From Hormiphora californensis (Eukaryota > Animalia > Ctenophora): DNA of 64,000 nt. The stretch covers positions 2,914,001 to 2,978,000 of the forward strand of contig CM035352.1 in assembly GCA_020137815.1 (NCBI GenBank). Direction: 5' to 3'. The notes below the pieces were generated by a model. That model saw nothing but the letters and a program-made list of their open reading frames with translations. It did not search any database and was not told the DNA's origin. A program made the translations under genes and the position numbers. Position 1 is the first letter of the stretch; every line of letters begins with the position of its first letter. Below are positions 10,169 to 53,706 of the stretch, one piece after another.

Positions 10169-22264
<12,096 letters not shown>

Positions 22265-22945: not shown

Positions 22946-27817
<4,872 letters not shown>

Positions 27818-28108: not shown

Positions 28109-29051
28109 GTATATGCTTCGGATTTATTAAAACTATTCGCCCACCCTCGAATTGGCACAATTTATATCTGAGATATCGCCAATTCCTAGTAAGGTAGATA
28201 CCCCAAATTTTGAGGTTGGGAAGAATTTGAAATTTTCTTACTAACCTACAAATTTAAAGTCTCTATCTTTATCAGAGGGTGGAGCTATGGCCTGTAGAAC
28301 AAAAAGAGAGCGGACAGTTTCATAGTAGAGTCGATAACTACATCGACCTCTCCCAATTGTTCCAGTTTTTGTCACATCTGTTTGGAGCCTCGACACGACC
28401 TCTAGACAGGTGTTACTTTTTCACAAACTGTTTTCATCTTGGTGTAATCAGCAGTTGAAATGTTGCTGATCATAACAAAAACCGGACTAAATTTTTTCAA
28501 CTTGGGGTAAAACCATGGGTGTCAAAAGTTAGCTCTAGGTCCCCTGAGTAACCATCCGGAGACTCTAAGAGATATTTCAAGCCGTTCTCCCGTAATCATT
28601 AATCCCGGTGGAGAAAAAAATACAATGCGGACGTACGTGAGCGCTGGCAGGCTGTTTACATGTTATTGTATGTCTCTCACTCTCTCTGGAAAAACCGCAC
28701 GTGCGGTTGCGCCGCGCGAGATAACTCCTTCTGAAGGGGGAGAAAAGAGAGAGACGCACATTAACGTTATACATTAAAGTTGAGGTTGTAGGCAATTGCA
28801 CGTACGTCCATACTCAAATATGTGCTCTACCGGGATTAATGATTACAGGAGAACGGCTTGAAATATCTCTTGGAGTCTCCGGATGGTTACTCAGGGGACC
28901 TAGAGCTAACTTTTGACACCCATGGTTTTACCCCAAGTTGAAAAAATTTAGTCAGGTTTTTGTTATGATCAACAAAATTTCAACTGCTGATTACACCAAG
29001 ATGAAAACAGTTTGTGAAAAAGTAACACCTGTTTAGAGGTCGTGTCGAGGC

Positions 29052-30287
29052 GGGGGGGTTCCAACCTATTTTTTTGTATTTTTTTGTATTTTTTTGTACG
29101 GACCATACATAAAAGTATCCAAAATTCCTGTTTTTTTCCATACAAACAATACAAAAAAATACAAAAAAATACAAAAAAATAATGAAGGATGTGGGTGCGT
29201 GAAAAAAGTATAAATAATACATGTACATGAACATAAACGGAACCCAGCTATACATAAACGGTAAGAAATTGCGATTCGGGGAAATTTCTCGCTTAGAAAA
29301 TACGATTCGGGAAAATTTTCTTGGTAAGAAATTGCGATTCGGGGAAATTTCTCGCTTAGAAAATACGATTCGAGAAAATTTTCTCGGTAAGAAATTGCGA
29401 TTCGAGGAAATTTCTCGCTTAGAAAATACTATTCGAGAAAATTTTCTCGGTAAGAATTTGCGATTCGAGGAAATTTCTCGCTTAGAAAATACGATTCGAG
29501 AAAATTTTCTCGGTAAGAAATTGCGATTCGGGGAAATTTCTCGCTTAGAAAATACGATTCGAGAAAATTTTCTCGGTAAGAAATTGCGATTCGGGGAAAT
29601 TTCTCGCTTAGAAAATACGATTCGGGAAAATTTTCTCGGTAGGAAATTGCGATTCGGGGAAATTTCTCGCTTAGAAAATACGATTCGAGAAAATTTTCTC
29701 GGTAAGAAATTGCGATTCGAGGAAATTTCTCGCTTAGAAAATACGATTCGAGAAAATTTTCTCGGTAAGAAATTGCGATTCGGGGAAATTTCTCGCTTAG
29801 AAAATACGATTCGGGAAAATTTTCTTGGTAAGAAATTGCGATTCGGGGAAATTCCTCGCTTAGAAAATACGATTCGGGAAAATTTTCTCGGTAAGAAATT
29901 GCGATTCGGGGAAATTTCTCGCTTAGAAAATACGATTCGAAAAAATTTTCTCGGTAAGAAATTGCGATTCGGGGAAATTTCTCGCTTAGAAAATACGATT
30001 CGAGAAAATTTTCTCGGTAAGAAATTGCGATTCGGGGAAATTTCTCTCGCGATTTTGGCATGCTACATATGTAAAATATGTATATTAAGCCAAAAACTAA
30101 TTGAAATTAGTTGGCGGGAAAGGTGACCCACTTACACCTTTTGCTCCTGCCGGGTATCACCACGAACTCTCATTCTATCCCTCGGTATCTCAATCTCATA
30201 TTTTTCGAGGGTAACTTATTCCTGTTCGTTCTATCCCTCTCTCTCCTCCCTGTCTCCCTGTCTCGCTCTCTCTCTCTCGCTCTCTCT

Positions 30288-30360
<73 letters not shown>

Positions 30361-31634
30361 ACTCTCTCTCACTCTATCACAGTCTTTCACTGTCTTATTC
30401 CATCCTGATCCCGGCAGCAGGCAAAGGTGTAAGTGGGTCACCTTTCCCGCCAACTAATTTCAATTAGTTTTTGGCTTAATTTAGGTCCCTTTTTGGTTTC
30501 TAATCGCAGCATGACATTATTTCATGATGTAATATTGTCGAAATGATGCGTTATATGAGAAACGAGACGAATTTCTGTGAAAATCGTATTTTAGACGTCA
30601 TAATGACGTCATTTGACGTAATCAGTGACGTCGTAACGACGTAATTGCATCACGATATATTTTGAATCAATACCCCAAAGGAGCTTGTAAAGTTTCATTG
30701 ACCACAGTGGTCAGGAAAGGGAGTTTTTGCTCGAAAAACGTTCAATTTGCTTAATTTTTCGTCAAATTTTTGACTTCCGACGCGATTTAAGGGCTCAAAA
30801 TGATAAGCTACGAAAATTCGCTATATAGTATCTGAAAGTTCAGACGATTTGCCGGTAACGATTTTTCGTCAAATCAGAAATCGGAACACGTCTTCAGGGT
30901 GCTAGAGGCGTTTGAAAAAATTTAGTCGGTCTCGCGCAATGACGTCACTCGTGACGTCATTGCGCGCGTCATAGGTAAGATGAAGAGTCGCCACCCAGAT
31001 GGGTACATGCACGAGACAATTATCTGTCGAATGCCGCTTGGTTTAAGGTCGTACGATGTCTGGTTCGTCTCAAACTGGGACCAAACGGATGGTAACAAAG
31101 CGTCTATACATGTATATATGTATCAACCTAGTTATCCCCACACTGAATTTTCTGTTTTGGGGGTGGTGTTATAACTTTTGAACAAAAAGAGCTAGCCACT
31201 TGAAATTTTAACCATCGATAGAGGTCTACAAGAAGCTTCTAAGTACAAAATTTCAGCTTCCTAGCTCTTCCGGTTCGGTAGTTATCTCATGTCAAAAAGT
31301 GCCAAAATGGGCTAAAAGTATGAAATAACTATATATACGCTGTGAGCAAGCGGGCCGTTTTTGGGGGAAATTTTTTTCGGGGGATGGATGGGGTCACCTT
31401 TGCGCTTGCCAGCGCAGTGATATTTTGTGCTAAATTGCGTGAAATAGCGTGGAAGAATGTTTAAAAACAGTAAAAGTTCGAACAATAATGGTAAATTACC
31501 ATATAAAACTGTTTTTATTTTTTTGTATTTTTTTGTACTTTTTTGTATTTTTTTGTATTTTTTTGTATTTTTTGTTTGAGGAAACCCGTGTTTTTTTCCG
31601 TACAAACGTACACGAAATAGGTTGGAACCCCCCC
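29052..31634. mobile_element. Second copy of the 63-bp-array transposon, itself interrupted at ~30085-31419
   Basis: Same G7/C7 termini, TSD GTCGAGGC, array at 29260-30046. Confidence 0.85.
30085..30479. mobile_element. TTAA-bounded inverted repeat (~57-bp arms) around a (CT)n spacer
   Basis: TTAAGCCAAAAACTAATTGAAATTAGTTGGCGGG...CCCGCCAACTAATTTCAATTAGTTTTTGGCTTAA. Confidence 0.65.
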
Positions 31635-32126: not shown

Positions 32127-32899
32127 TTAGTTGTTTAGCGGCGCCATACCCCATTTGATTCTCAGTGCGCTCAGATGGGTCGCGGCGCCAGACAGTTTAG
32201 CCGCGGCCGCTCAATTGAGTCAGATGTGTGAGCTACCCGCCACCCGGACTGTCATGGTTCCAAATATCGATGCCCTGACTCTGATCATATTCTTGGGCAC
32301 GTCGCGCCCTCTTTTTTCGCGCGCGATTTTTCGCGAACCCCTCACACAGAGGGCACAGTCACGACTAGAGCACTCGGAAAGTGCTTAGCTTCGCTAAACG
32401 GCGCTAGTTAGCGCTTTAATTTTTAGTTTTTCTGATTGGCACTATCTCAAACTGGTGCAACGTATTTGTCTCGATCTATAACTCTCAAAAACAGTGGCGT
32501 AATCGCCGATTTCTGTATACAGTTTTTTGGCGATTACGAGAGATTGAGGGATCTGACAAACACAAAATTCTGGATTTATAAACTTCAGACAATTTGCCAC
32601 CTTCCTACCAAAGGATTTTGTCTGGGGACTTCTGGCCTTTGATTGACAGCCAATTAAAAATATTTGTCCTGAATTTAGTGGGGCTAGTGTGCTAAACCAT
32701 GGCCTCTATTGCAGTAATCTCTTGTGTGTGATTGGCTGATGATGGAGTGAGGTCACGGGGACCCTTTTAATTGTACAACGTGGAACCCACGTTTGCTTGC
32801 TGTGGTGAGTCGTTACTACACGTGATCAATTAAAGGACCAATATCTGTAGCTTATCGGCCGATATAGCCGATCCGATATCGGTCATGTGGGACGCCTGG

Positions 32900-33290
32900 C
32901 ACGTGATTCGAGACCAAGTGAGGCACCCCGTTCTGGCCTCGATTGGTTATTGATGCAGTCATATGGTGATCACGTGTCCCATGTTATGACCAATATGGTA
33001 ATAGGTGGTTCACGTGATACGTTTGTTCTACCGAGATTGGTTTGGACCAAGTGAGGTACCTGTTCTGGCCTTGGTTGGCTGTTGACTGCAGGCAGTGAAA
33101 TCATGGACCCATGTTATAACCAATATGGTCAATTTACAGACGCATGTTATGACCATATGGTCAATACGTGGTTCACGTGATGCGTTTGTTCTGCTGTGGT
33201 TGGTTCGGACCAAGTGAGGCACCCGTTCCGACCTCTGATTGGCTGTTGACTGCAGTCACGTGGTGATCAGGTGACTGATTTTATGACCAT
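32900..33290. repeat. Three degenerate 130-165-bp direct repeats rich in CACGTG/ATTGG, left of the viral genes
   Basis: GACCAAGTGAGG(C/T)ACC at ~32912, ~33045 and ~33208. Confidence 0.7.
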
Positions 33291-33310
33291 ATATGAGAGG
33301 GAGAGAGAGA

Positions 33311-33398
<88 letters not shown>

Positions 33399-33504
33399 CA
33401 GAGAGAGACTGCTCACGACAGTCAACCGGAGAATGCGCGTCTCATGGGAGAGAAAGTTAAAATAAAACAAATTTATTTACCATGAAATATTAAAATGAAT
33501 CATT

Positions 33505-33939
33505 CTACATCATTCTATATACATCGAATCGAATACAAGCGAGACATTCAACTTGCCAGGCTGTTGACGGACGGGAGTTTCTCGCAATTTCTATTAGATC
33601 ATCTCGCTCAATATCACTTTTGATTTTCCTTGTGTCCGCTGGCGTGATTATAAGTCGAGCCGTATCAAAAACCATCGTGTTGTTTGAAGGATGATAAAAC
33701 TTCATATTATCGGTGGGAAGATGTCGCATGATGTATCCAAAGGCTACATTGAGCTTCACATGTTGTTTGTAGTTAGATAGAACTTCGTCCAGCTTACCAG
33801 ATATTTTATCTGTCAAGGACAACGGGAAATGATACACATCTTTCAACTTTCCTCTCTTAACACTTTTTTGAATTGGTGACCAATGTTGACGATAGATCCC
33901 CTGAAATTCTTCAGGGATAGATTCAATAAACGATTCCAT
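33505..33939 (-). CDS. Stand-alone homolog of the N-terminal (terminal-protein-like) region of Polinton pPolB
   Basis: Motifs YRQHW..I, KLNVAFGYIM, FYHPSNN..FD, DDLIE.AR..RPST.W.V, F.VY match my recollection of the pPolB segment preceding the vOTU domain. Stop is followed by AATAAA. Confidence 0.65.
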   Translation of the reverse strand: MESFIESIPEEFQGIYRQHWSPIQKSVKRGKLKDVYHFPLSLTDKISGKLDEVLSNYKQHVKLNVAFGYIMRHLPTDNMKFYHPSNNTMVFDTARLIITPADTRKIKSDIERDDLIEIARNSRPSTAWQVECLACIRFDVYRMM

Positions 33940-34032
33940 TCTAAAATTGAGTTGAAAAACGTTAGTTACTGAAACTTTAATATTAGTACACAGTAAGACA
34001 CATCTGATTCAATAATAAGGTTACAAATCATA

Positions 34033-34434
34033 CTAGTTTAGTTTTCTCTTCTTTGCAGGTGATTTATTGTAGATTAATTTATCAACTTCCTCGTTTACAT
34101 ATCTTCCATAGTAAATAGCCTCTGGGGTCACAGTTAAGATGAAACTTCGCCCGCACGAAATGTAACACTGACGATCCTCCTCTGGTTTGTCTGACTGGGG
34201 AAGTTTCGGTTTAAGAGTCTCGTACTCTTTTGAAAGTGTTCTGAGAAGTTCCCCTTGAGCAGTGAAGAAATGTTTCCCCAATTTATCCAGCAGAGAGTCC
34301 TGTTGACACATGTGTAGAATTGGTGACTTCAAACCAGCTTTGTGAGCTGGGCATGTTTTCTCCGATATCCTACAGACTTTCCGAACCATGCTATCACATA
34401 GTGCTGCAGTCCAAACATTCTCAAAATACAACAT
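34033..34434 (-). CDS. Viral hypothetical protein with C-terminal NLS-like PAKKRKLN
   Basis: 133-aa ATG ORF divergent from the integrase, sharing a TA-rich promoter region. Confidence 0.6.
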   Translation of the reverse strand: MLYFENVWTAALCDSMVRKVCRISEKTCPAHKAGLKSPILHMCQQDSLLDKLGKHFFTAQGELLRTLSKEYETLKPKLPQSDKPEEDRQCYISCGRSFILTVTPEAIYYGRYVNEEVDKLIYNKSPAKKRKLN

Positions 34435-34570
34435 ATTACAACTGTGATATAACAGGTGAATTTCAACTCGATCTTCCTATATATATATATATATATATAC
34501 TATATATAAGAGGTACTAGGCAAGTTCTACCCCTCTTATCGACGTGTTTATTTGTTTCATCCGCACAAGT

Positions 34571-35666
34571 ATGCCACGGAAAAAGGTCCGCAAAAAGTCG
34601 CAACCGAAAGACGACATCCAGAAATTGTACACAAATCCTAAATCTTCAGGAGCGTTTGCAGGCAAAGAAACATTTTATCGATCAGCAAGAGAGCAAAATA
34701 AAAGGTTGAAGAGAACGAATGTGAACAAGGCTCTTCTGAAAAGTGACCCATATACTCTCCATAAGCCGGTTCGAAAGCCGCGTCGTTATAGACGTATCTA
34801 CACCAAGGGTATAAACTATCATTTTCAAGCTGATCTTGTGGATATGAGTGCATACTCCAAGGAAAATGACGGGTACAGGTGGATACTTAATGTGATCGAT
34901 ACATTTAGTAAGAAACTGTGGGCATTTAGACTGAAGAACAAAACTGGTAAAAGTGTTTATGACGCTCTTGAACCGCTTCTTACTAAACTAAGACCTCAAA
35001 AATTTGAGACGGACGGAGGGGGAGAATTTAAAAACAAAAGACTACTGGATCTATTGAGCAAGCTTCTCATTGACCACTATACTGTCTACTCTGATCAAAA
35101 GTGTGCCGTGGTAGAGCGTTTGAACAGAACTATGAAAACTCGAATTTTTCGAGCCTTCACAGCCCAGGGCACACATCGATGGATCGACATACTAGACAAG
35201 TTGGTTCAAGGGTACAATAATAGCCATCATCATTCTATAAAAATGAAGCCGAGTCAAGTTAACAAGAAGAATGAAAATGTTGTACGCAGAACGCTGTTCC
35301 CCACCCGAACCACCTCCCCGTCCGCCAAAGCTCAAAGTTGGTGATACTGTCCGCGTCTCGGGGATTAAAGACGTCTTTCAGAAAGGTTACGAACAAACAT
35401 GGAGTTTTGAAGTGTTCACTATCGACGAAGTCAGAAATACTAATCCCGTTACCTATCGATTGAAAGATTTCGCTGGTGAGCAACTCCAAGGGAGTTTTTA
35501 CGAATCACAAGTTCAGGAGGTCGATAAGACAAATGAAATTTTTGCTGTTGACAAAGTGTTGAAAACAAGGAAACTGAGAGGTCGAGTTCAATATTTTGTT
35601 AGCTTTAGAGGTTACCCTGAATCAGAGAACAGGTGGGTGAATAAATCTGACATGTATGATGTATAA
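34571..35666 (+). pseudogene. Retroviral-type (rve, DDE) integrase with C-terminal chromodomain, +1 frameshift near 35299-35302
   Basis: YTLHKP, QADLVDM, IDTFSK, TDGGGEF, VERLNRTMK, YNNSHH.SIKMKP. The second frame continues KLKVGDTVR..KGYEQTWS.E.F and a chromodomain (VDKVLKTRK..QYFVSFRGYPESENRWV). Confidence 0.9.
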
Positions 35667-35698
35667 AAGTATGTTTTACACTTCTCATTTGATTCAAA

Positions 35699-36301
35699 AT
35701 GTTGCTTTTTGCAAACTCTAATATCCTTGTTATTGGTGCTAGTGGGAGTGGGAAAACAACCACAATCATGAAAATTGTGAGGGAAGAACTTATTTCCCCG
35801 ATGCCAAAGAAAATATTCTACTTGTATGCCGCCCATCAACCATTCATGGATACGTGGAACCAAGAAAACAAACAAAAGGTTGAGTTTGTGTATGGGTTAA
35901 AGCTTGATGTGATAGACAAATACGAGGAACCCAAACTCTTGATTCTAGACGATCTAATGCTTGAACTCAACAAGGATATGGCTCAACATTTCATAGCAGG
36001 CTCGCACCACAAACAAACGACAACTATTTTTGTGACACACAGTGTGTTTCTAAACAACGAGAACTATCGTCTGATAAGTCAGAACGCACAATACATGATC
36101 CTGTTTAAAAATAAAAGGAATCTCTCTCAAGTTAATACGCTAGCACGTCAAATTCTTGGGTCAGATAGTAGTAGACTCATGGAAGCCTATAAATACATTG
36201 GACCGTTCCAGTCTGTATTACTTTCCTTCCACCCACGTGTTCCAGAAGATTTACTGGTTACAACAGATTTCTTTACACCATGTCCAAGCGTGTTCCTGTA
36301 A
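35699..36301 (+). CDS. A32/FtsK-like DNA packaging ATPase
   Basis: Walker A GASGSGKTT, Walker B LLILDD, GSHH..TTIFVTH, RLISQNAQY..LFKN.R. Confidence 0.92.
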   Translation: MLLFANSNILVIGASGSGKTTTIMKIVREELISPMPKKIFYLYAAHQPFMDTWNQENKQKVEFVYGLKLDVIDKYEEPKLLILDDLMLELNKDMAQHFIAGSHHKQTTTIFVTHSVFLNNENYRLISQNAQYMILFKNKRNLSQVNTLARQILGSDSSRLMEAYKYIGPFQSVLLSFHPRVPEDLLVTTDFFTPCPSVFL

Positions 36302-36591
36302 CACTGAAAGCACACCACGGTGCATTAAAGCTTCTTTCGAAAAAGAACACTGCCCAAATACGAATTATTTTGGATAACACACCGTCACTTCGTAAAGCAC
36401 TCAAAATACTATTCAAAAGTATTTTGAGGGGGCATCTAAGTATGGAGAAGCGAGATTTGACCAAACTAAAGAGACACCGTTCCTTTATCAGAAAACACGC
36501 TCACGCACCTATAAAAGTCAACCAGAAAGGTGGTTCGATAATTCGCACCATTCTGCAGACTATACTTCCTCTGTTACCCGCAGTCCTATGA
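36280..36591 (+). CDS. Basic Polinton core-like protein with QKGG protease site and hydrophobic tail
   Basis: Lys/Arg-rich, ends NQKGGSIIRTILQTILPLLPAVL; overlaps the ATPase end. Confidence 0.75.
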   Translation: MSKRVPVTLKAHHGALKLLSKKNTAQIRIILDNTPSLRKALKILFKSILRGHLSMEKRDLTKLKRHRSFIRKHAHAPIKVNQKGGSIIRTILQTILPLLPAVL

Positions 36592-36797
36592 GGTACCATT
36601 TGGTAGAAGCTAACGGGAGTGTAAAAAAGGCTCTCACGATTCCTGCTGAAATTATTCCTTTAAAAGGACTGAGTAGAAAGTACAAGGAACCTAAACCAAA
36701 GCGGAACAAGAAGAGACGTGTTACAAAACGTTTACACTCTGCTAAAGCACTTGTTAATGGACATCATCGTTACAAGCAAAAACCAAAGACCAAATAA
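36588..36797 (+). CDS. Small highly basic protein (possible DNA-binding core protein)
   Basis: ATGA start/stop overlap with the previous ORF; KPKRNKKRRVTKR. Confidence 0.5.
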   Translation: MRYHLVEANGSVKKALTIPAEIIPLKGLSRKYKEPKPKRNKKRRVTKRLHSAKALVNGHHRYKQKPKTK

Positions 36798-37461
36798 CTT
36801 TTCTTCCAACTTCATTGACTCGATAAGCTTAGCCGACAATTTTGAAATCGCTGTAAAGGGTATATTTCATGGTCCAACGTTCAACATTACCGAACTAAAC
36901 AACACGTTTCGGATTTTTGATGGAACTGACTGTATAGCACGGTTGGAAATATCACCTGGATTTTATGCAAACACATGTGATCTGATCAAGGCAATCAACA
37001 ACGTATGTTTGGTGAACGAAATCAATACGAGTTATAAGATAAACTCAGGAAAAGTAACCCTAAAATTGCCAAAGAGTCATGCAATTGGAACTGGAGGTAA
37101 ACAGGACACACTGTTGAGTGTTTTGGGATTCTGTGAACATGGAGTTGATTCCACCCCTACCTATATTGGTCAGTTGGCGGTTGACAGTTATAGCCTGACA
37201 AATCAAAGTGAAATCGCCTTACTGTATTCATCGATTGTTAATAACATGCAAATTAACCAACAACACTCTCGTTTATTAGCATGTTTCCCTATTAAATCTG
37301 TTGAGGGTTATAATTATCATGAAGTAACAAACCCCATGTATCGACCACTAGCTGTGCATGCCTTTATCGACCTACATTTTCTTTTGACTGATATTGAGGG
37401 AAAATTGCTTGAATTTGCTGATTTACCTACTGTTATCATTTTAAATATTCGAAAAGTTTAG
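36757..37461 (+). CDS. Minor capsid protein (penton, single jelly-roll)
   Basis: N..F...I.L...FEIAV, PGFY, LYSSIV...SRLL, NPMYRPL, LTDIEGKLLEF, IILNIRK pattern of Polinton mCP. Confidence 0.85.
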   Translation: MDIIVTSKNQRPNNFSSNFIDSISLADNFEIAVKGIFHGPTFNITELNNTFRIFDGTDCIARLEISPGFYANTCDLIKAINNVCLVNEINTSYKINSGKVTLKLPKSHAIGTGGKQDTLLSVLGFCEHGVDSTPTYIGQLAVDSYSLTNQSEIALLYSSIVNNMQINQQHSRLLACFPIKSVEGYNYHEVTNPMYRPLAVHAFIDLHFLLTDIEGKLLEFADLPTVIILNIRKV

Positions 37462-37522
37462 CCATGTGTCGTTGTCGTTTACTATAAATATAAATACACC
37501 CACCCCTTCAAACCATTCAACC

Positions 37523-37834
37523 ATGCGACAATCGTATTACCCATCTGCACAGGTCAGAGCCGCTTTCGATCGTGCTCTTGACAGTGACCTTGGTGTCTAT
37601 CACAATCAAACTGGTGGGGGTATTGGTGGTTTCTTTAAAAAGTTGCTTCGAACTGTAGTTCCTATTGGAAAATCAGTTCTCCAGAAAGGTTTTGAAATTG
37701 CGAAACCTGGACTCCAGAGCGCTGGGAATGAATTAGTCAATGCTGCTAGCAAATATGCAACTAAACAAATCGAAACTGGTGCTTCAAAACTTTCTAACAA
37801 GATCGTTAAGCGAAAAAGGGACGCTCTCTCGTAG
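37523..37834 (+). CDS. Core/membrane-lytic-like protein with QTGG site followed by an amphipathic helix
   Basis: HNQTGGGIGGFFKKLLRTVVPIGKSVL; basic C-terminus KRKRD; TATAAATA ~40 nt upstream. Confidence 0.75.
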   Translation: MRQSYYPSAQVRAAFDRALDSDLGVYHNQTGGGIGGFFKKLLRTVVPIGKSVLQKGFEIAKPGLQSAGNELVNAASKYATKQIETGASKLSNKIVKRKRDALS

Positions 37835-37873
37835 GGTATAAAAGGCGAAGTTTAAGGGTTCATTTACAACACC

Positions 37874-39163
37874 ATGGCCAAGTACGTCCAGTCATCTGAG
37901 GGCTTACCCACACAACTTCACTTGTGGAGTCCCCTACCAACACAAACCGGGATCCTTGCGACAAAACTGATCGATGTTTACCCCAACAACTCAATCGACA
38001 GCTCTGACACAATTTCATTTACTATCCCTGCTCTGGAGCAACTTATGTTGGACTCCGTGGAGGTCTTTACTGAACTGAGGGTACTTACAAATGAAGGAGG
38101 AAACCCGGCTGCTAAGGCAAACGTGTCGACTGCCCCTCATCTTGGTGCTATATTGTGGAGGAACGTTGAAGTCTCGTCTGGTGGTGTTTCTCTAACTCAA
38201 TCCTACGACAATTCCTACGCGATGTTTAAGTTCTGGGATGATGCAATTCACCATGGTAGGGATGAAGAAGCCTTTCTTATGCGTAAGGAAGGTATGCTCC
38301 TTGATAGTGTCGGTGATAAGTCTGAGAGTGAGAGTGTTGTATTTTTCCCCGAAACTGGTACCCCGAAAAATACAAACGGACAATTGCGAGCCAAGAGGAT
38401 TTCCAAGGGCGAAAAAGTGTTTCTTTGCTCTAAATTGAACGTATCAATCTTTAATCAAGCGACTTTACTTCCCACAAATTTGGAGTTTCAAGTCCAGCTC
38501 ACAAAGAACTACAGCGAAGCAATCCTTCTGTCAGCCGCAAATGATACTTCGCAGGTTAAGTTTGATAGGGTATTTTTGAGGTGTAAATTTCAACAGCCAA
38601 GGGACGAAATTCTGAATATGCTCGAAGTTAAACTCGCCAAACGGAATGCTATATACCATGCTGACAAAATGCTGATGAACATCCACCCCATTAGCACCAA
38701 ATCGGTCACAATTGACAATTTATTCAACGGACCACTTCCCTACTTTTTCTACGTTGGAATACAGGATCGTAGTGCGTTTGGAAAAGCACGAAACAAAAAT
38801 CCTTTTTCCATTCACTTGATAGAAAGTGCCCAACTTTATGTAAACGGGGTGGAGTATTATCCACAGAAGCTTAAAATGACTGACCATGATGAAACTAACA
38901 TGGCAGTAGCTCTTGCAGAAGCGACAGGGTCTCGTAAAGACAACTTCATACTGCATCATTTCCGTGTGTACCCTGCTCTCGGTTTTGATTTGACACAAGA
39001 TAAGTCCCAGAATCAACATGGTATGAACTTGAACAGGACTGGTAATGTGCGAATTGTACTGGAGCAATTAAATGATGTTCGATTGGAAAAGGTTCTTTTC
39101 ACCCTTGCCTACTACGACCGGATTATAGAAATCGATAAAGATCGACGGCTTTTCGCTATATAA
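37874..39163 (+). CDS. Major capsid protein (double jelly-roll, Polinton PY/hexon)
   Basis: 429 aa; L.LW...PTQT.I, ISFTIP, LLPTNLEFQVQLTKN, NLFNGPLP, NPF, FDLT.D, GNVRI, IIEIDKDR. Confidence 0.9.
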   Translation: MAKYVQSSEGLPTQLHLWSPLPTQTGILATKLIDVYPNNSIDSSDTISFTIPALEQLMLDSVEVFTELRVLTNEGGNPAAKANVSTAPHLGAILWRNVEVSSGGVSLTQSYDNSYAMFKFWDDAIHHGRDEEAFLMRKEGMLLDSVGDKSESESVVFFPETGTPKNTNGQLRAKRISKGEKVFLCSKLNVSIFNQATLLPTNLEFQVQLTKNYSEAILLSAANDTSQVKFDRVFLRCKFQQPRDEILNMLEVKLAKRNAIYHADKMLMNIHPISTKSVTIDNLFNGPLPYFFYVGIQDRSAFGKARNKNPFSIHLIESAQLYVNGVEYYPQKLKMTDHDETNMAVALAEATGSRKDNFILHHFRVYPALGFDLTQDKSQNQHGMNLNRTGNVRIVLEQLNDVRLEKVLFTLAYYDRIIEIDKDRRLFAI

Positions 39164-39192
39164 GCTTCTAAATCAATGGTTTTCCTCCGGAA

Positions 39193-39615
39193 ATGAAGCA
39201 ACTAAAAACAAAGTCGTTCAATGAAATTGAGACAGACCGATTTAAAGGAGCGTTTGCATATGATGAAATACCAGAAGATCTGTCTGATAGTCAATGGAGT
39301 TTTGTTGTCAATACAGCTCCGTCTACCGATGTTGGTGAACATTGGATTGCTGTTATTTTCAAGGAAGGGGTGACATATTTCATGGACAGTTATGGTCGGC
39401 AGCTGAGTCGTAGAGAAGTCACGTTTACGCCAGCATTTGTGGATAAATTGAAAAGTGTTGTACGGGGACGTATAGTTAGCAACAAGAAAATTTTGCAGCA
39501 GCTAACTAGCAATGCATGTGGTTATTACGCTGTGTATTTTGTAGAGAGATTGTCTGTAGAAAGTTTGAGACAAACACTACAACCGTTTACAGGAAATTTA
39601 AAGCAGTCAGAATGA
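39193..39615 (+). CDS. Adenain-like cysteine protease (C-terminus probably frameshifted)
   Basis: VNT....GEHW, FMDSYG, QQLTSNACGYY give the His/Asp/Gln/Cys catalytic set. Confidence 0.9.
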   Translation: MKQLKTKSFNEIETDRFKGAFAYDEIPEDLSDSQWSFVVNTAPSTDVGEHWIAVIFKEGVTYFMDSYGRQLSRREVTFTPAFVDKLKSVVRGRIVSNKKILQQLTSNACGYYAVYFVERLSVESLRQTLQPFTGNLKQSE

Positions 39616-39680
39616 ATGTTTTGTTTTACAATATTGCTTTTCATAAATTGAGTTGTTTATCTTTACTAACTATGTCCACA

Positions 39681-39995
39681 TTAGCCACCCAAATCACATT
39701 CAATGTCCGCTGGATCAAAACTTTTCACGCTAATCGGAGAGGGTGGACCATAAACTGGTTGAACGCGTCTCACTGGTAGATCGAATATGGGATACCCATC
39801 TTCAAACTTAACTTTACGCTTTCTCTTCTTCTCTTCCAACTCCATTGTATACATCTTTTGGTTTGCCTCCTCAACACGTTGTTTGGCTTCTTGTTTTTCT
39901 ATGTAGGCATCTGCATGGGGTATTCGAGGAGGAGAGAGATTTTCCCATGATTCTTCATCAAATTCTATGTTATGCGAAGACCAGCACAGACCCAT
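39681..39995 (-). CDS. Viral hypothetical protein with N-terminal MGLCWS acylation-like motif
   Basis: 104-aa ATG ORF, upstream TATATAAAT, coiled segment and KKRKRK. Confidence 0.6.
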   Translation of the reverse strand: MGLCWSSHNIEFDEESWENLSPPRIPHADAYIEKQEAKQRVEEANQKMYTMELEEKKRKRKVKFEDGYPIFDLPVRRVQPVYGPPSPISVKSFDPADIECDLGG

Positions 39996-40155
39996 GACAA
40001 ACTAAAACACACGGTTTTGAGAAATGAAACAAAATAGTAGACAATGATTTATATAGCACACAATTCACAGTCACACATATCATAATCATCATCCGCTAAC
40101 TCATTCGCATTTGTTTTAAAGACTATAACACGGATAGAAGCTAACGAAATAATGT

Positions 40156-40500
40156 TCATCGAAGGCTGCTCCGGTTGAATAAGTTGTAGAACGGAACTAC
40201 CGGTTGCTTCTGCAACTGTAAGAAACCTTTGATGTGTGCGTTTAAACCACGTCGCAAGGTTTCTTGATCCTCCCAGAAATAACTGAGTTCAATTCTGATT
40301 GGTTGATCATCAATATAACGCCTGTCAACCCCAGAAACAATGGGAGGGATCTGTTCTGGTAGTGTTACTGGAAAGCGAAAGCTGTCTACAGTTAGACCAA
40401 TCTGTACATCATAGCTTAGATTGTTTCCGTAGCTCTCAATTAATGAACCAATCATATCCAAAGTATCCTCGTAAAATACAGTATCCTCGATGGCAACCAT
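40156..40500 (-). CDS. Viral hypothetical protein
   Basis: 114-aa ATG ORF with TATAAAAG ~35-40 nt upstream. Confidence 0.6.
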   Translation of the reverse strand: MVAIEDTVFYEDTLDMIGSLIESYGNNLSYDVQIGLTVDSFRFPVTLPEQIPPIVSGVDRRYIDDQPIRIELSYFWEDQETLRRGLNAHIKGFLQLQKQPVVPFYNLFNRSSLR

Positions 40501-40752
40501 TTTAGAAATGCCAAAATAAAAGATCGCGAACTCTTTTATAGGGGGTGTCTACGTCCTTGCTGATTACTGCAGTGGGTTATTTGATTTGGAGACTTTTGGT
40601 GAGGTAGTGTAATCAAAGTGTGCTTCAAACACCTGGTTAATATGGTACAGTTTTGACAAAAAATTCGCGACTGGGGCGGAGATGTTCGAGCAAAATAGGC
40701 TAGTAAATTACGAGTCTCCATGTCGATTGGAAGAGAAATGTTTCATCAGACT

Positions 40753-41320
40753 TTATATAGCTGTCTCCCGCTGCTCTTCATTATGATGATCGTTAAGAAC
40801 AAGTCGATACTTGGTCTTTATGAACTCGAAAACAGTTGGGGCTTTAACTCCAGTGAACAGGCATAAGATGATTACGAATGGGATACAATAAAGAGCGTAC
40901 ATTACATTACATACATAAACTTGTTGGCGTGCCGTAACGTTTACAGCGATACACTTTTTCTTCCGTGCCCTCGTCCACAAAACCCCCCTTGAAAGATTTT
41001 ATCTGACAAGTAACTATTAGTGTGTTGAACTTTAGCTGTTGCACTGACCCTTTGCTATCTATCAGGTTCATACCAACCCCGTTAACTGTTTTTGAAGGCC
41101 ATTGAAATGTAGAAATTGGGCTAGTTGAAGCAGTAAAGACTTGTACATTTTGAGATGTGTTGTACACCACAAGTTTTATCAGCTCCCCCTCTTTTGTAAG
41201 AAACGCACGTTTGTTATGACCTCCGGATAAAGAGAGAAAATTCGTACAATTCGTGTCACTAAACTCGACCAAGAATGAGTTGGTGATGAAAACTGAGGTG
41301 AAAAAAGCCGTCAAATTCAT
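40753..41320 (-). pseudogene. Type I membrane glycoprotein-like gene split by a frameshift at ~40899-40913
   Basis: Hydrophobic N-terminus, NCT/NTS sequons; TM-like MYALYCIPFVIILCLFTGV in the next frame after an (ATGTA)3 run. Confidence 0.55.
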
Positions 41321-41362
41321 TTTCTCGATTTCTTTTAGTTTGCTTTATTTTCTCTTTATAGC

Positions 41363-41466
41363 AAAAGTGGGGTGGACGGCCGGGAATGATGCGGTGGGAT
41401 TCGAACCCACGACTGCCACACTACTAAGTAGTTTCGGCACCTTAGGGGCCCGGCTATCCTCCCCGG
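41363..41466 (-). ncRNA. tRNA-Leu-derived Pol III-type small RNA (not a canonical tRNA)
   Basis: TAGCCGGGCCCCTAAGG (A-box/D-arm-like), perfect T-arm GTGGG-TTCGAAT-CCCAC, terminal stem CCGGGGA.GAT/ATC.TTCCCGG, TTTT 13 nt downstream of the stem. Confidence 0.6.
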
Positions 41467-42242
41467 TGTTAAAATGGAATTTTGTCTTTTAGAAACAGGT
41501 TGAGCTCTCTACATAGCGAACGTCGAGAGGAGATGAGGCGACGAGAGGGAGATGAGACCCACGACTGCACACTACAAGTAGTAGGGGCTAGTTACTCGAC
41601 AACTTAGGTCCTCTCTATTTCAGCTCTCTCGGTATCGAATTCTGCTCCGTTATCTACCCGGGAGAAATTAGAGAGTAAACCTAAGATATGATATATATAA
41701 GAAGAGACCGGAGAGGAGGAGAGAAGATGAGGCACTAAGCGATATATAGCTATATAAGGTACTCTATATACTCTCTCTCATTTCCCTATACCGTCGTCTC
41801 ATGTGCAGCCACAATGACCATCCTGGTTTGACCAGTGTAAATTAATCAAGCCAACGAGAATCCGAGAGTAGTAACGAAGGTAGTTCGACCGAAAAAAGTA
41901 GTTTTCAAAAACAATTGGTATATTCGCGGGCCCGAGGAACAACCACATATCACGAAGCCACGCTGGGATTTAACCCACCCAGTATCGTTCTCCTCCTGTC
42001 TTTTCCTCTTTGCAGACGCGTAAATTTATAATTAGTGTTGTTATATAATAACTTTCAAAATGATCACAAACTTCAGATCCAGCTCGAAGGATCACATATT
42101 ATTAGCTCGAGTAAGGAACAATTTAGACTAAAAGTGTTCCTGTGTAACCGCATGACACACCAATTTTCCAAAAGTCACACACACCACACACACACCCTAT
42201 AAATAGAGCTGTGTGACAGTAATACCTGATGTAATTCAGATC

Positions 42243-43050
42243 ATGTACGTTGTTGCTAGTAGTTACGGACAAAATCCAGGCAATTCATTTTACGCGCAAA
42301 GGAGAATTCACGATGTAATGTGAATACGAATATAACTACAAGGGTGTTGTGGTGTCAAAAGTGTGAGCCATGCTCCCTCGTCGTTTGCTAATGTTACAGA
42401 AGCTAACAGCTACTTCACAATTTTCAAAAACCCGCATGGTGATCGTCAAACCAGGATGTATTCAGTTCCACCAGGATTTTATCGAACTAGTGCAGAATTA
42501 TTACTGGCAATGCGAAAAGCTATCTCTGACAAAGAGCGGGAAAACCTGAGAGATGTGGATATTGATAATTGGGAGACTCCAGACTATATCGCTGATGAAA
42601 ATACACATACCTGTGCTTTGGTATATACTGCTAAATCTAAGTATGGTTTTCCGGCCAAAGACAGTGGAGTGATAAGATTTTTTAGGAAGTTCATGGAGCG
42701 AACATCTATTATAGATTTTCCCAGAAAACTTGCTGGTAAAATGGAACCTTTCGACATGCGTTGTCAACTTGGTTATATCTATTCAAATATTGTCCCTGAA
42801 ATACATACAATTAGTAATAACTCTTGACAAGGGTTGTAAGGGTTCTGCCCCCCTGTTCTTTTAACCAGCACAAGTGCGGTTACAATATTATGATTTTGTA
42901 ACCCATGTATTTCAAGTGAGTTTCCGTTTTTGGCTGAAATGCTACTTCAGTATCTCAGATAATATGGGACAACTTTTTGAATTTCATGAAGACGATGAAA
43001 CGAACTTTCCAACTATCATTGTATTACATTTTCGAAAAATATCTAACTGA
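42243..43050 (+). pseudogene. Second, divergent minor capsid (penton) paralog with several frameshifts
   Basis: MYVVASS.GQNPG, GVKSVSH, NVTEAN, VPPGFY, YIYSNIV, PMYF, ISDNMGQLFEF, PTIIVLHFRK parallel the 36757 ORF; TATAAATA at ~42198. Confidence 0.75.
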
Positions 43051-43228
43051 GATTCAAAAATAATTTAAAATAACCTGTGTTGTGATATTTTGTTAATTAT
43101 TCGAATGCACCACTCCTCCTTTCAAAAATCCTACTTATTGTCGTAGTTGTATGTCTTGTAGTTGTCTGTGTCTGTCTGTCTGTCTGTCTGTTCTGTCTGT
43201 GTTCTGTCTGTCTGCTGTCTGTCTGTCG

Positions 43229-43282
<54 letters not shown>

Positions 43283-44086
43283 ATGTCTGTTCTCTGTCTG
43301 TCCGGACAATGTTGAGTAGAGAGACCAGCCCCGTCCTGGATTTAAAGACTCCATCGTGGAGCAAAGTAACCACACCAACACACAGTCCTAAAACATCTGT
43401 CTCCAACCCCAAACGACCAGTAGCAGTAAGGAACAATCTGTTCAACTTTCCAGAACCTACAGAAGCTCAGGTCACGATGGTTGATTAGCATCCGGACTAG
43501 GGGTAACTTCAACTCCTTCGGTGACACAGACGATGAAGAGGAGGAGGAGAGACGTCCATCCCAGCTCCCCCTCCAGTCGCTGACAAACCACCTCCATCTC
43601 CTGATCTCCTAAGGAGGACACCATCGACTCATCTCCGTCAATTAGGCGGGGTACCCACTCGCGGAATGCTTCAGGAATATCTACACAAGCAGGAATCCTT
43701 CCACTGGTTAGATAAACAAACGCCAACCCCCCCTGGGTTGAGTTGGAACAAGAACATCTTCCTAGAGCACAGAGTCCAGTGATCAGGTTGCCTCGCTTAT
43801 CGGGTAATTTAGGTCCCTACTACTCGATATATACTACTAACGAGGGCAGGGTACAGACCCTGAGAAACAGATAAATAACGTGGATCCGGTATTAAAAACA
43901 CAATACAAAGCACTATACTAGCTAGAGAAAAACACAATTAGACTAACTTAATACACAATGGGAGGGAGATAGACAAGGGCTAGTTAAAATGCGAGTAAAC
44001 AAAAACGGGTTGAGAAAAGCTAGCCCTAGTCTAGGGGAGAACCAGGGAGGACTATAGGAATGACGAGCAGTGGTATGAACTTATAG

Positions 44087-44547
<461 letters not shown>

Positions 44548-47500
44548 GGAGATTGAGAGGAGAGAGATTGAGAGCGATCAAAAGACACTTGAAGCATGCC
44601 ACTGAGAAGTAGTATAATACCACCCCCCCCCCCCCGTCATCTATATAATATAAAGGAACCCCCGATATACCGTGCAAAATGACTCCCCCCCCCCCCCCCA
44701 TGGATCCTGGTATATCGGGGTCGGAATGTGATGAAGTATGTATCTCCACAAAACCTCCAGCATTCAAATTTGTCCTTAACCGTTTTATTTTCATCCAGAC
44801 GTTTCTACGAGATCATTTGGATCGGCCTTCCAGTCTCTTCGATAATATGTCTCCATTCCGTGAGATTGAAAATACAAGGTATAAAATGCTTTATATGGCA
44901 GTAGGAATTAATTAAAAAATAAATACATGCATATTAAGAACAAATTAGCTCAGTTTAGTTCATTGTCACAGTTAGTTATTCATACTTTAGTGATAGTTCA
45001 TTCTTAAAATGTCCATAACTTATTTATTATTACCACCCCTTTCTATTTAGGTACTGGAGTTATCCTTGTATGGGTCACTTTCTTGAGCCTCTACAGTGTA
45101 GAGTCTACACCTCCCCCTCCCCCATCCCTTCCCACTCTGTTCATGTTCACAGTCCGAGATATGAGGCTGCTCCACCCTCGGGATAGCCGCCAGTCCGCCA
45201 GGTATTTTCTACCCCCTCTCTTTAGTACTTCAATTTCCGTGACGAGGCTTTTGCAGTATTTTACTAGCCTTCTATCAGGTTTTCAGGGCCCCTTAGCTGC
45301 AGCAGACGCTGTGTGGGTCCCTAGTGTGTACGGATTTTATGTGTGTATTGAATTCCTTACCTTTGTATCATGTATGTACACCTAAACAGGGTCTGTCACC
45401 AGTGTCGCATCGTTTTGAAATTCTCCGCACAAACGACTAGCACAAAATGACAACATGCAAAGAATTGCTTGCTGCTCAGTTTGTTTTTATGTTAGCGACT
45501 TGAAACAAAGTACATCGTTTAGAGAATTAAATTGTCTATGTCTAGGTGAAAACTAGACGAAAAATGAGCAAGTACAGGAGTAACTAGAGAAATCTAAAAA
45601 GTGACCTCAAAAAACCGTCTTTTCGACCAAATATTTTGAAATCGCCATAGCTCTGGAAGTAGGGCTGATCTCAAAAATCGGTGAAGAGTAGGTCGAACAG
45701 TTTTGTCTGAATTTTCACGTAGTACCGGTTTTAACCTGATAGGACCAACCACCAATGAGCCTACCTCAAAAAACTTTGAAACAACCTGATTTTTTCAAAA
45801 TTTCGCTCTTCCCGAGAATTTTGGAAAAGTGTCGCATCATTTTCGCGATTTTGATACGACACTTTCCCCCTGCATATAAATGCCTATATCTCTCTTCCTC
45901 TCTAGTTTCTACGCCACGATCTCACTTTTCTAGTGTATCTAGGAGGTTACACTCACTGGGGAGGGGGGCTGCAGTTTTTGGTTGTGCTGCTGTAGAATAT
46001 CTGGCCAGGAATTGGCTAAATATGCAACTAATTGATATCAAATCAAAAATCACTCTACCCGACTAATTTCGATACGCTGAATCACGTGAGCAACTTTTTA
46101 AAGCCCACAGAGGCCGATAAAGTGCTCTAATTGGGCATAATTGGGTCTAATTGACCGAAATTACAACTTTTCTCCTGGAAACGCTATCATGACAAATTTA
46201 GGCACTTACCCCACTGATTTTGATACCCTGATTCACATGAGCATCTTTTATCAATGATGGATAAAATGCACGAATTGGACATAATTGGGTCTAATTGGCT
46301 AGCATAATTATAAATTTTCCTTGTAAACACATTTACTTCCTTTGAAGACACTTCCCCATTGATTTTGATACCCTGATTCATTATATCAGCAGGGCATCTA
46401 CATCTTAGTGGTGGGTGCTCTAATTGGGTCTAATTGATTGAAATTACAATTCTTTCCAAAAAAAATTACAAATAAATCCGTATGAGGGCACCTTCCCCAA
46501 TAATTTGGATACGCTGATTCGAATGAATAACTATTAACTATTATAAGCTCTAAGCAGCGGAGCCAATTCCCTAATTGAGTATAACTGGGTCTAATTGATC
46601 AAAATAATTACAATTATTTCCTGTTATGTATACATAGGGTGCACTTTACATAATGCTTCTCTCTCAAATCAGTGTAGTTAGTATCTCCAAAATCCAGGTG
46701 AACTTTTACAGGGAAAAGTTGTAATTATATTGCTCAATTAGACACAATCATGCTCATTTAGAGCATTTTTTCCACAATTTCGAGCTTAGAAAAGATACTC
46801 ATGTGATTCAGGGTATCGAAATTAGTGGGTTAAGTGCCTAAATTTGTCATGATAGCGTTTCCAGGCGAAAAGTTGTAATTTCGGTCAATTAGACCCAATT
46901 ATGCCCAATTAGAGCACTTTATCGGCCTCTGAGGGCTTTAAAAAGTTGCTCACGTGATTCAGCGTATCGAAATTAGTCGGGTAGAGTGATTTTTGATTTG
47001 ATATCAATTAGTTGCATATTTAGCCAATTCCTGGCCAGATATTTTACAGCAGCACAACCTTGGGCACGTCGCGCCCCCCATGTTCGCGCGCCCGTAGGGC
47101 GATCCCCTCACATAGGGGGCACAGTCACGACTAGGGCACTCGTAGAATGCTTCGTTCTGCTAAACGGCGCTAGTTAGCGTTTTAATTTTTGGATTTTCTG
47201 ATCGGTCATGTTCTAAATGAATGCAACGAACAGGTCTCGATTTGAAACTCTCAAAAACCGTGGCGTAATCGCCGATTTGCTCAAATCGGTTTTTTGGCAA
47301 TTACGGGAGAACGGAATATCCATAAAATCCCAAACTCTGGGATATGTTAGAGGAGACAATTTGACACCTTCGTGTCGAAGGATTTTTCTCTTATTCTTCT
47401 GGTCTTCAACTGACGGCCATTTGAATTAATTTGACCTCTCTTCCCCCGACCCTTAGTCCCACTAAACGACAGCTTTATAAGTAACCATCTTTTTTTCCCA

Positions 47501-48083
47501 GGTAGAGAATCCCTTGAACTGGTGCAACGTATAGGTGGATAAGCCAGAAACGATTTCTGGACAGAGGAATCGACTCTCAAAGTTGGATGATTTCAAACAG
47601 TGATTGGACTTTTTGGGACACTTTGACTTTAAAAAGAGTGATACATTTATCATTTTCCGACATAATTTTACCTAATTTGACCAACTAAAGTGTTTAATTA
47701 ATCGTTAATTGCTTAATTAAGAAAATCGGACGCGCAAATATACAAACGCGCTTGTTTTGGACAGAAATTGCGCGCGCTGAAGAATCTTCAAAGTGAATCG
47801 TGACGGCGCGAACTGAAAAAGTTGCGCGGTTTTTTTTTTCGAAACTCGAAAAGTCAAGAATAATTTGCGCACTATGCCACGGATCAGGACCCATCCTCTT
47901 AACCCATTCTAAGGGCCTGCAGCAAAGAGAAAACTTTTCCGGGACTATTGAAAATCTAAGCGATGAATTATTCTGAGGCTCGAGCGACCTATACACAGCG
48001 TATGGCGACATTTAAAGGATTCTTACCTGAAACGTCTACAGAAAGTTCAGAACGTCAGACGTCTACAGAAAGTTCAGAACAGT

Positions 48084-49630
48084 GCGACACGATACATATA
48101 TGGGAAAAGAGGAAAACGGGGTGTAACAAAACTTCGCATGAAATCACACTTCTTGCCTGTGAAACAGCGAATAGAGTACAAAATTTGCTTGATGGTATAC
48201 AAGATTCTTCATCTTCATGATCAATCACCTCCATACATGTCTGAGATGTTAGTGAAGTGGCCCCAGAAAGTGAAATCACTCCGAGTGGATAATGACGTCA
48301 CCGCTCTGAAAGAGGTGCGGAGGAGTGAGTACCACTACGAAAACACTAGAGGCGCTTTCAGTATTGCTGCACCTAAATTATGGAATCAGCTACCACGATC
48401 AATCCGGGACTCAGAATCCCTTACTACTTTTAAAACATCCCTGAAGACGCACTTGTTCTTTAGAGCATACAACCAATGACCGGCAAAATAATCCTCACTT
48501 CCCTACATCCACATGGATTCCTGAGTAACTACTGTCTCTAACTCCTATTCCTGATTCCTGGGCTCCCTTTTTCTCGTGTATTCCTTCACATCGATACCTG
48601 CATCCTTTCTCTCCTACATTATTCCATGTTGATCCCTGGGTCCTTTACTCCTACCTTGCTCCACATCGCTCCCTGGGTCCTTTCCCAACCTTACTTCATA
48701 TCGATCCCTGGGTCCTTTACTCCTACTTCCACTCCACATCGATCCCTGGGTCCTCTACTCCTACCTCCTCCACATCGATCCCTGGGTCCTTTACTCCTAC
48801 CTCCTCCACATCGATCCCTGGGTCCTCTACTCCTACCTCCTCCACATTGATCCCTGGGTCCTTTACTCCTACCTTACTTCACATCGATCCCTGGGTTCTT
48901 TACTCCTACTTCCACTCCACATCTATCCCTGGGTCCTTTACTCCTACCTCCTCCACATTGATCCCTGGGTCCTTTACTCCTACCTCCTCCACATTGATCC
49001 CTGGGTCCTTTACTCCAACCTCCTCCACATCGATTCCTGGGTCCTTTCCCTACCTTGCTCCACATCGATCCCTGGGTCCTTTCCAACCTCCTTCACATCG
49101 ATCCCTGGGTCCTTTACTCCTACCTCCTCCACATCAATTCCTGGGTCCTTTCCCTACCTTGCTCCACATCGATCCCTGGGTCCTTTCCCAACCTCCTTCA
49201 CATCAATCCCTGGGTCCTCTACTCCTACCTCCTCCACATCGATCCCTGGGTCCTTTACTCCTACCTCCTCCACACCGATCCCTGGGTCCTTTTCCTTGCG
49301 CTGCTCCATATCGAGCACATCCTCATTCCTCATTCTAAAAACTATTTACAACATCCCTTCTACACGCTACTCATCACCTCTTATCACGACAGTTGATTGA
49401 TTCGGTTTTTTGTACATACATATACACACTGTGAAGAGTGTTTGAATTAGACGAGATAACCCAGCTAGAGGTAGCTACGGGCGGAAACGTCCGCATGTTG
49501 GACATATATATTTTTTAATTTGTGAACCAATATGTTTAGTGTATTAGCGGGGTGTCAATAATTACATTTATTTAATTTATTGACATTATAAATATAATTT
49601 TAATCTTGTAATCTTGTAATCTTGTAATCC
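48084..49630 (+). mobile_element. 5'-truncated L2/CR1-group LINE (ORF2 C-terminus, stop at 48479, plus 3' UTR)
   Basis: HFLPVKQRIEYKI..., AFSIAAPKLWNQLP..IR....L.TFK..LKTHLF; probable (AATCTTGT)n tail at ~49602-49630. Confidence 0.8.
48588..49312. repeat. 36-bp minisatellite (~20 copies)
   Basis: TCCACATCGATCCCTGGGTCCTTTACTCCTACCTCC repeated. Confidence 0.9.
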
Positions 49631-51253: not shown

Positions 51254-51292
51254 TTGCCCGCGTAGCGAACATGAGGGGCGCGACGTGCCCAA
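51254..51292 (-). mobile_element. 39-bp minimal element of the TTGGGCACG family
   Basis: Reverse complement TTGGGCACGTCGCGCCCCTCATGTTCGCTACGCGGGCAA; TSD CTCTCTTTC at 51245-51253 and 51293-51301. Confidence 0.8.
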
Positions 51293-53571: not shown

Positions 53572-53706
53572 CAGTCGGTTCCCGATTTACCGCGATGCTC
53601 GGGGGAAAGATATTGCCTGATAATTCGGGGTGCCCGGGTCAAATAATGTTAATTTCTTATCCCGGCTCGGGTATATATCAACGACCGGTAAATTGGGGTC
53701 CGACTG
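53572..53706. mobile_element. Tigger/pogo-like MITE
   Basis: TA-CAGTCGG...CCGACTG-TA. Confidence 0.75.

Follow-up and report, generated by a model that had tools for sequence, protein, structure and literature searches.

Polintons, or Mavericks (adintoviruses, Polintoviricetes), are defined by a DNA polymerase of family B that is protein-primed (pPolB), and the described norms are a length of 13-25 kb, terminal inverted repeats (TIRs) of 100-1500 bp and target site duplications (TSDs) of 5-8 bp (PMC10748475). The element described here lies in a 64-kb stretch of the ctenophore Hormiphora californensis (GCA_020137815.1, contig CM035352.1, positions 2,914,001 to 2,978,000 of the forward strand; hereafter the window). 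It is a 9.8-kb endogenous Polinton-type virus with an integrase, an ATPase, two pentons, a major capsid protein (MCP), a protease and a 144-aa open reading frame (ORF) for a terminal protein (TP). Its integrase, ATPase, penton, MCP and protease are ordered as in the related pPolB-bearing loci L009, L019 and L027, but it is without the vOTU, exonuclease and polymerase domains, it is shorter than the Polinton norm, and neither a TIR nor a TSD was found. The element works like a Polinton yet fails membership of the group on pPolB and TIRs. At about an even chance, it represents a natural satellite-like lineage that uses its own TP as primer and borrows pPolB in trans from a helper Polinton.

Other described systems share parts of this organization. 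In a Stylophora coral adintovirus the TP is also encoded by a separate gene, but the polymerase gene is kept, and it is the single example given (10.1101/2024.03.18.585575; PMC11161782). The polB-less Polintons of Pieris mannii and other insects carry the Polinton set without polB and are apparently mobile, but they are recent derivatives with long interspersed nuclear element or long terminal repeat cargo, TIRs and highly similar complete siblings (Pannagram, 10.1101/2025.02.07.637071). A terminal protein is not mentioned in the accessible portion of that report, whereas the window element is free of cargo and its TP is of an old dedicated family. Adenoviruses and PRD1-like tectiviruses likewise have a free TP with a little-finger-like fold, in which the loop that leads into the last strand bears a hydroxyl residue, but they encode their own cognate polymerase and have no rve integrase; compared with their TPs, that of the window is no more than a 144-aa core whose N-terminal helical part is short. 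Tlr1 and the Polinton-like viruses combine a virion module with the lack of a standard pPolB (and, in Tlr1, with an rve integrase), but they carry a substitute replicase (pPolB-S1H, PolA-S3H or AEP-S3H), and none was found in the window element. A literature search, with Repbase and subscription journals outside it, returned no account of Polintons that have a free TP but lack a polymerase, and none of ctenophore Polintons. A free TP without a polymerase is not described in the accessible portions of PMC8502044, PMC10748475, PMC8097293, 10.1101/2023.10.06.561300 and 10.64898/2026.10.13.758929, the supplements of which, like Repbase, may hold such elements.

The stand-alone terminal protein and its family

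The 144-aa ORF at 33505..33939 on the minus strand was assigned, from sequence and a fold model, as the TP domain that is normally fused to pPolB. In tblastn it matched the N-terminus of the L027 pPolB (E 5e-8; 25% identity), and in this alignment it ends a few residues short of the linker to the vOTU domain. The model (predicted local distance difference test score, pLDDT, 94.4) has a four- or five-stranded sheet and two helices, which is the D1 fold. Among viral proteins it matched an adintovirus protein best (E 2e-5) and bidna-like and MELD PolBs next, and its top match in VIA was the PolIV little finger 4ir1 with a middling Z of 5.9 (root-mean-square deviation 2.8; 86 aligned residues). 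Y-family polymerases made up 8 of the top 17 VIA rows, and the TP/D1 domain has been described as related to the Y-polymerase little finger (10.1101/2024.03.18.585575). No TP match at E <0.001 was obtained with Foldseek against the PDB, PDB sequence searches gave chance-level matches only, and the Atlas search yielded no more than leads (scores 0.77-0.80, with PF03175 found on 24% of the members of one cluster). The gene is followed by AATAAA about 25 nt past its stop codon. On the same strand, 33940-33975 holds a branch-point-like motif, a T-rich tract and an AG directly before the TP start codon, and a spliced leader may be used in TP expression.

The predicted priming residue is Thr126, located in the loop between the last helix and the last strand, two residues after Pro124. 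The linking residue has been placed in this same loop (10.1101/2024.03.18.585575). Position 126 is Ser or Thr in 112 of 113 free TPs and in all 126 fused TPs, so that the hydroxyl group of a D1 domain is present. These data bear on the proposal that the element spreads without any polymerase, being copied with the host chromosome and moving by excision, packaging and integration, with the TP acting only as an end-binding, nuclear-import or packaging protein. Such spread would be in keeping with the mobile polB-less Polintons of butterflies, for which the mechanism was left open (10.1101/2025.02.07.637071). The modelled resemblance of the TP to a DNA-binding little-finger domain would also suit it, but the predicted priming hydroxyl and the surrounding Arg-Pro-x-Thr-x-Trp loop are conserved to the same degree as in fused TPs. 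Since covalent TP linkage requires a protein-primed polymerase, polymerase-independent spread was deemed quite unlikely.

A TP profile search limited to proteins of 79-310 aa gave 139 matches from 613 candidates. Among the 120 that were listed, 109 are 130-159 aa long and 119 end 5-17 residues past Phe138 of the last strand; P0189, one of the latter, is a fused-type TP that has been truncated. A tree was built from 113 free TPs (8 of 121 were dropped by length) and 126 fused TP domains from 150 proteins, and all 113 free TPs fell into one clade (FastTree support 0.96). The free TPs also have a private signature, Cys-x-Arg-x-Asp, with Cys135, Arg137 and Asp139 each found in 112 of 113. The median identity within the family is 47%, and the family was therefore taken to be old; dS between TPs is saturated. 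A single-sequence search found no longer TP homologues among 186 candidates, which was a failure of sensitivity, since the profile did find fused TPs. A 54%-identical free TP is present in Pleurobrachia bachei. A 156-aa free TP and MCPs were suggested to share several large contigs (up to 11 for one TP sequence), from matching sizes only. The free TP family was considered solid with high confidence.

This family also bears on the origin of the locus. In the first-pass annotation the neatly bounded TP-like gene had been taken to favour a natural organization, with the element being either a satellite or a deletion relic. The former point is well supported by the homology to the pPolB N-terminus, the fold and the conserved stand-alone family. 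A random relic would have come from an ordinary Polinton through a cut in the fused pPolB just past the TP domain, and the frameshifts of the integrase, protease and second penton in the assembly, together with the lack of TIRs, would be expected of it. However, the same TP boundary recurs in nearly all of the listed homologues, which form their own clade, and the integrase and protease breaks are not common to contigs from four runs; this origin was judged very unlikely. The satellite remains the best candidate, and a third option, a split between TP and polymerase, had been missed.

The missing polymerase and the related loci

The absence of a pPolB ORF or motif from the window, as first annotated, was borne out by three approaches. 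A scan of all six frames for pPolB motifs gave no match to motif A or C and only three chance 5-residue matches resembling motif B. When 74 minus-strand ORFs from five related loci were compared with the window by tblastn, the TP ORF was the sole match. It was again the sole match in the 64 kb for a pPolB profile (E 2.5e-31; profile positions 146-284 of 1567), which was built from 83 of 150 pPolB relatives (those of at least 1000 aa) and run on six-frame peptides of at least 25 aa; in control searches this profile detected polymerase exons down to 30 aa in L007, L009, L019 and L027. Of pPolB, then, only the TP domain is present, and a vOTU-pPolB gene apart from the TP, as in the Stylophora element, is absent from the window. 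The Pfam family DNA_pol_B_2, which had been suggested as the test, proved insensitive: all true pPolB control exons were missed, and for this reason Pfam negatives were not relied on for pPolB. For a substitute replicase (helicase-polymerase or primase fusion), no Pfam match was found in 24 selected ORFs or in 104 of the 152 flank ORFs of at least 75 aa, the other 48 being low-complexity and dropped. No unassigned ORF of the block exceeds 170 aa.

In 4 of 27 metagenomic MCP loci (three families), a pPolB that is probably split by introns lies on the opposite strand downstream of the protease; most of the other loci are too short to judge this slot. The pPolB genes of these loci (L007, L009, L019 and L027) and the L019 integrase appear as exon-sized ORFs with motifs split across the pieces, and these polymerases are probably intron-containing viral genes. 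Intact vertebrate Mavericks have been described as intronless (PMC8097293).

In L023 the pPolB slot is occupied by a TP gene. Its product is 42% identical to the window TP, and the gene is convergent on the protease gene with 33 bp between the stop codons. The virion genes of L023 and L008 gave dN/dS values of 0.17 and 0.23, indicating purifying selection. In L028 the TP gene lies directly behind a core gene with its own TATA-like motif and ATG, and it is broken by a stop; this Polinton fragment occurs within the record of a bacterial metagenome-assembled genome and is most likely misbinned eukaryotic viral DNA. No polymerase follows the TP in either of the two loci with sequence downstream of it, and the window, L023 and L028 make three free-TP gene orders. 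The possibility that the short TPs are artefacts of exon ends was ruled out by the distance between the L023 stop codons and by the lack of downstream exons in the window.

An MCP tree was calculated for 60 sequences: 45 of 86 search matches, together with those of the window, the loci and named proteins. In this tree the L008/L023 family was not the sister of the window, and polymerase-bearing L007 and L009 were among the lineages between them, with the deep branches weakly supported. Because of this placement, it seems that the TP gene either passes between capsid lineages or was retained repeatedly. The closest MCP cluster includes a Pleurobrachia bachei protein, which, with the free TP of P. 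bachei and the Mnemiopsis MCPs, points to a ctenophore host. The L009 MCP is 88% identical to a protein of Mnemiopsis leidyi, which holds several MCPs of this type, and both L009 and L027 carry the fused TP-vOTU-exonuclease-polymerase arrangement; Polintons of the L009/L027 type are thus potential helpers present in ctenophores. Scans of viral contigs with the MCP, the TP and the L027 polymerase gave no matches, and none was found in phage records. Two pairs of loci, L009 with L010 and L008 with L023, are 92-95% identical through the MCP and protease and diverge shortly past the protease, where they differ by a polymerase versus none and by a TP versus a small ORF, respectively; this site behaves as a point of module swapping.

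The comparison with other loci also bears on the option of an autonomous Polinton with an adenovirus-like split into TP and vOTU-pPolB, of which the window would hold a truncated or internally deleted copy without the polymerase gene and TIRs. Such a split has been published for the Stylophora Polinton, and it would account for purifying selection on all genes without a helper, for the missing TIR and TSD and for the distance between free and fused TPs. Furthermore, a start at the TP/vOTU border, expected of a split polymerase, is seen in two (P0424 and P0451) of the 150 best pPolB relatives. On the other hand, no polymerase follows the TP in the window or in L023, and 127 of these relatives have the full fused TP, the starts of the other 23 being scattered as in fragments; the query contained the TP, which favours fused matches. 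In addition, there are 5848-bp records, one with an 88%-identical TP and one with an MCP of the closest cluster, which match the 5.66-kb span from TP to MCP in the window and leave no room for a polymerase between, if they are the same contig, as judged from equal size only. The split arrangement was regarded as the main rival, possible but less likely than the satellite.

Virion genes, candidate ends and surroundings

ORFs of at least 100 aa starting with ATG cover 71% of the block at 33505-43050, against 12-13% of the flanks. From left to right, the minus-strand genes for the TP and ORF2 are followed on the plus strand by those for the integrase, ATPase, a small basic protein, penton, a second small protein, MCP and protease. 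To the right of the protease there are a few small minus-strand ORFs, then a spacer and then the second penton-like gene. The inventory first given for the block stood as regards the ATPase, penton, two small core-like ORFs and MCP, which are contiguous and open; it had left out the integrase, the protease, the second penton and the GA and TGTC arrays.

ORF2 (34033..34434, minus strand) encodes a 133-aa Cys/His-containing protein common to related Polintons; in L012 and L019, the ORFs 24-25% identical to it (E about 1e-8) lie upstream of the integrase. The integrase (34571..35666), although frameshifted near 35.3 kb in the assembly, is of the rve type found in Polintons (Pfam rve, E 4e-11) with a C-terminal chromodomain (Chromo, E 4.5e-7). 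The packaging ATPase (35699..36301) gave P-loop matches that include a weak one to Pox_A32 (E 0.014) and is 61-67% identical to the ATPases of L005, L012 and L019. With the adenain/Ulp1-type maturation protease (39193..39615; Peptidase_C5, E 7e-4, and C48, E 0.004, both weak), which is disturbed in frame near its 3' end in the assembly, the ATPase completes the pair seen in Polintons. The double jelly-roll MCP (37874..39163) was assigned from its structure model (pLDDT 85.9), which matched the capsid proteins of PBCV-1 (E 4.7e-16) and Sputnik (E 4.7e-15) in Foldseek; matches to the capsids of PBCV-1, Sputnik and mavirus span E 1e-16 to 1e-12, as expected of a Polinton capsid.

The first penton, or minor capsid protein (36757..37461), has no Pfam or PHROG match and was named from its position and from 30-40% identity to syntenic ORFs of the MCP loci. 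The second penton-like gene (42336..43050, plus strand), which is in pieces in the assembly, matched the first by BLASTP (E 3e-6) and the pentons of other loci with a best E of 9e-10. A tandem pair of penton genes is also present in L004 (454-2075), and a second penton is thus not confined to the window element. The small basic core-like protein (36280..36591) has syntenic homologues at 32-53% identity and was labelled from synteny and from a Gly-Gly motif, which we take to resemble a protease site. Synteny (homologues at 35-51% identity) likewise suggested a core or membrane-active-like protein for the small ORF at 37523..37834, upstream of the MCP. At 39681..41320 the minus strand holds small accessory ORFs, three or four in number; one of them is broken and has hydrophobic segments. 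All are below replicase size, with no Pfam match at E <0.01 and no PHROG match. Pfam and PHROGs did not recognize the TP, the MCP or the pentons. The non-coding spacer at 41321..42335 contains degraded CT/GA/TA runs and TATA-like motifs and may hold an alternative right end.

The integrase, the protease end and the second penton are frameshifted in the assembly. Contigs of all four runs show indel differences from the window at the integrase and protease breaks and many gaps in the second penton region, and the breaks are therefore likely to be assembly noise or private lesions. Contigs spanning the TP and virion genes were obtained from two studies of one organism label and from one second organism label. 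Among the 40 differences listed out of 963 between contigs and window, 10 of the 12 in core genes are at third codon positions.

The block thus has everything but the catalytic polymerase, and this would be expected if it were one segment of a bipartite virus, carrying the virion genes, integrase and TP, with a second molecule that has matching ends and a TP-less polymerase, the two being mutually dependent. A cognate partner would solve the problem of TP specificity, and two-segment genomes with matching termini are known in bidnaviruses (PMC8502044). However, no second segment was seen, and the virion genes are also present in all four polymerase-bearing loci; the bipartite arrangement was considered unlikely.

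The first annotation had found no inverted terminal pair, and this was upheld both by self-BLAST, which gave none around the block, and by the best inverted local score of 27, compared with a maximum of 26 in 30 shuffles. No target duplication of 5-8 bp was found at the end positions tried, the true ends not being fixed. In place of a TIR of 100-1500 bp there are only two microsatellites of opposite polarity detected with TRF, a GA-rich array at 33295..33408 and a TGTC array at 43169..43302 (both plus strand), which lie about 100 and 120 bp beyond the terminal stop codons and were taken as the left and right boundaries and as candidate terminal repeats. AG-type terminal repeats are typical of Polintons. 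A contig of run X2 starts 29 letters beyond 33411, crosses the TP and ORF2 and ends at 34437. For runs X5 and X6, one record each overruns an end, the left end by inference, and their contigs pass into a CTGT repeat immediately after 43136. A loose contig end at 41486 running into a CT repeat may mark an alternative right end; no contig covers or bridges about 41.5-41.9 kb, which proves nothing. At 32700-33295 there are three direct repeats of ~145 bp rich in CACGTG and CCAAT, and 6 of the window's 30 CACGTG motifs lie within 1 kb; similar motifs occur upstream of the L027 pPolB. These repeats could be a subterminal region of the element. The stretch at 43303-44426, from the TGTC array to a GA array at 44427-44567, contains two convergent broken ORF-like stretches with no family matches and may either belong to the element as well or represent an independent repeat.

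Elsewhere in the window, long foldback elements were found at 13130-16650, 23666-25063, 45546-55129 (with 45980-47059 nested), 61514-62860 and 6453-7092, two of which end exactly at the start of a repeat family that also begins at 32292. An element with a 63-bp tandem array is present as 97%-identical copies at 19735-20981 and 29050-31634, the second split by a nested insertion. Probable host exons encode a Sushi repeat (17008-17262, minus strand), a TRAFD1/UBZ zinc finger (26361-26657, minus strand) and an F5/8 type C domain (60734-61249, plus strand).

Proposed replication with a borrowed polymerase

For the satellite-like lineage, the following course is proposed. After excision, Thr126 of the TP would accept the first nucleotide at the AG-rich ends, and a TP-free polymerase, either shed by its own vOTU protease or encoded split, would elongate; the element would then package itself and re-integrate using its own proteins. 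The TP of a Polinton pPolB is predicted to be cut off by the vOTU (10.1101/2024.03.18.585575), and the catalytic part of a helper pPolB, freed in this way, would be open to recruitment by a foreign TP. With a TP of its own, the element would not have to wait for the helper TP, which is made fused to the polymerase, in order to mark and prime its ends.

Several observations weigh against this proposal. At only 1.8 and 0.7 kb, the two loci that support it leave room for a polymerase elsewhere. Free and fused TPs are only about 25-35% identical, with at most 42% to any fused TP, and only 3 of the 6 listed TP differences between contigs and window are at third positions. The GA array is weak evidence for a terminal repeat because there are 11 long AG/CT arrays in the 64 kb, and with neither a TIR nor a TSD to fix its ends, the block may come from the interior of an element. 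Pairs of TP and polymerase are usually cognate-specific, as is known from phi29. The pPolB Polintons are known here from related loci only, and a helper in the same host is an inference. A missing polymerase does not follow from a free TP, since the coral Polinton has one beside a vOTU-pPolB gene (10.1101/2024.03.18.585575), and 96% of vertebrate Mavericks are degraded (PMC8097293). It was concluded that the chances for and against a polymerase-less way of life of the lineage are about evenly balanced.

Because pPolB defines Polintons, surveys starting from it are blind to elements of this kind. With slightly better than even confidence, the window element belongs to an old and widespread class of animal satellites (or bipartite-Polinton segments) that have their own virions, integrase and free TP, take pPolB from another Polinton and carry a TP gene that is mobile between capsid lineages. 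If this is true, Polintons have satellites of their own in which the usual dependence is reversed, with the parasite keeping the capsid and borrowing the polymerase, and pPolB would act in trans on a foreign TP. Even under the split arrangement there is a large family of free Polinton TPs, of which 10.1101/2024.03.18.585575 gives one example, and it would represent the condition seen as the origin of adenoviruses. The small, well-folded 144-aa TP would also offer a practical handle on the priming role of D1, which has so far only been predicted.

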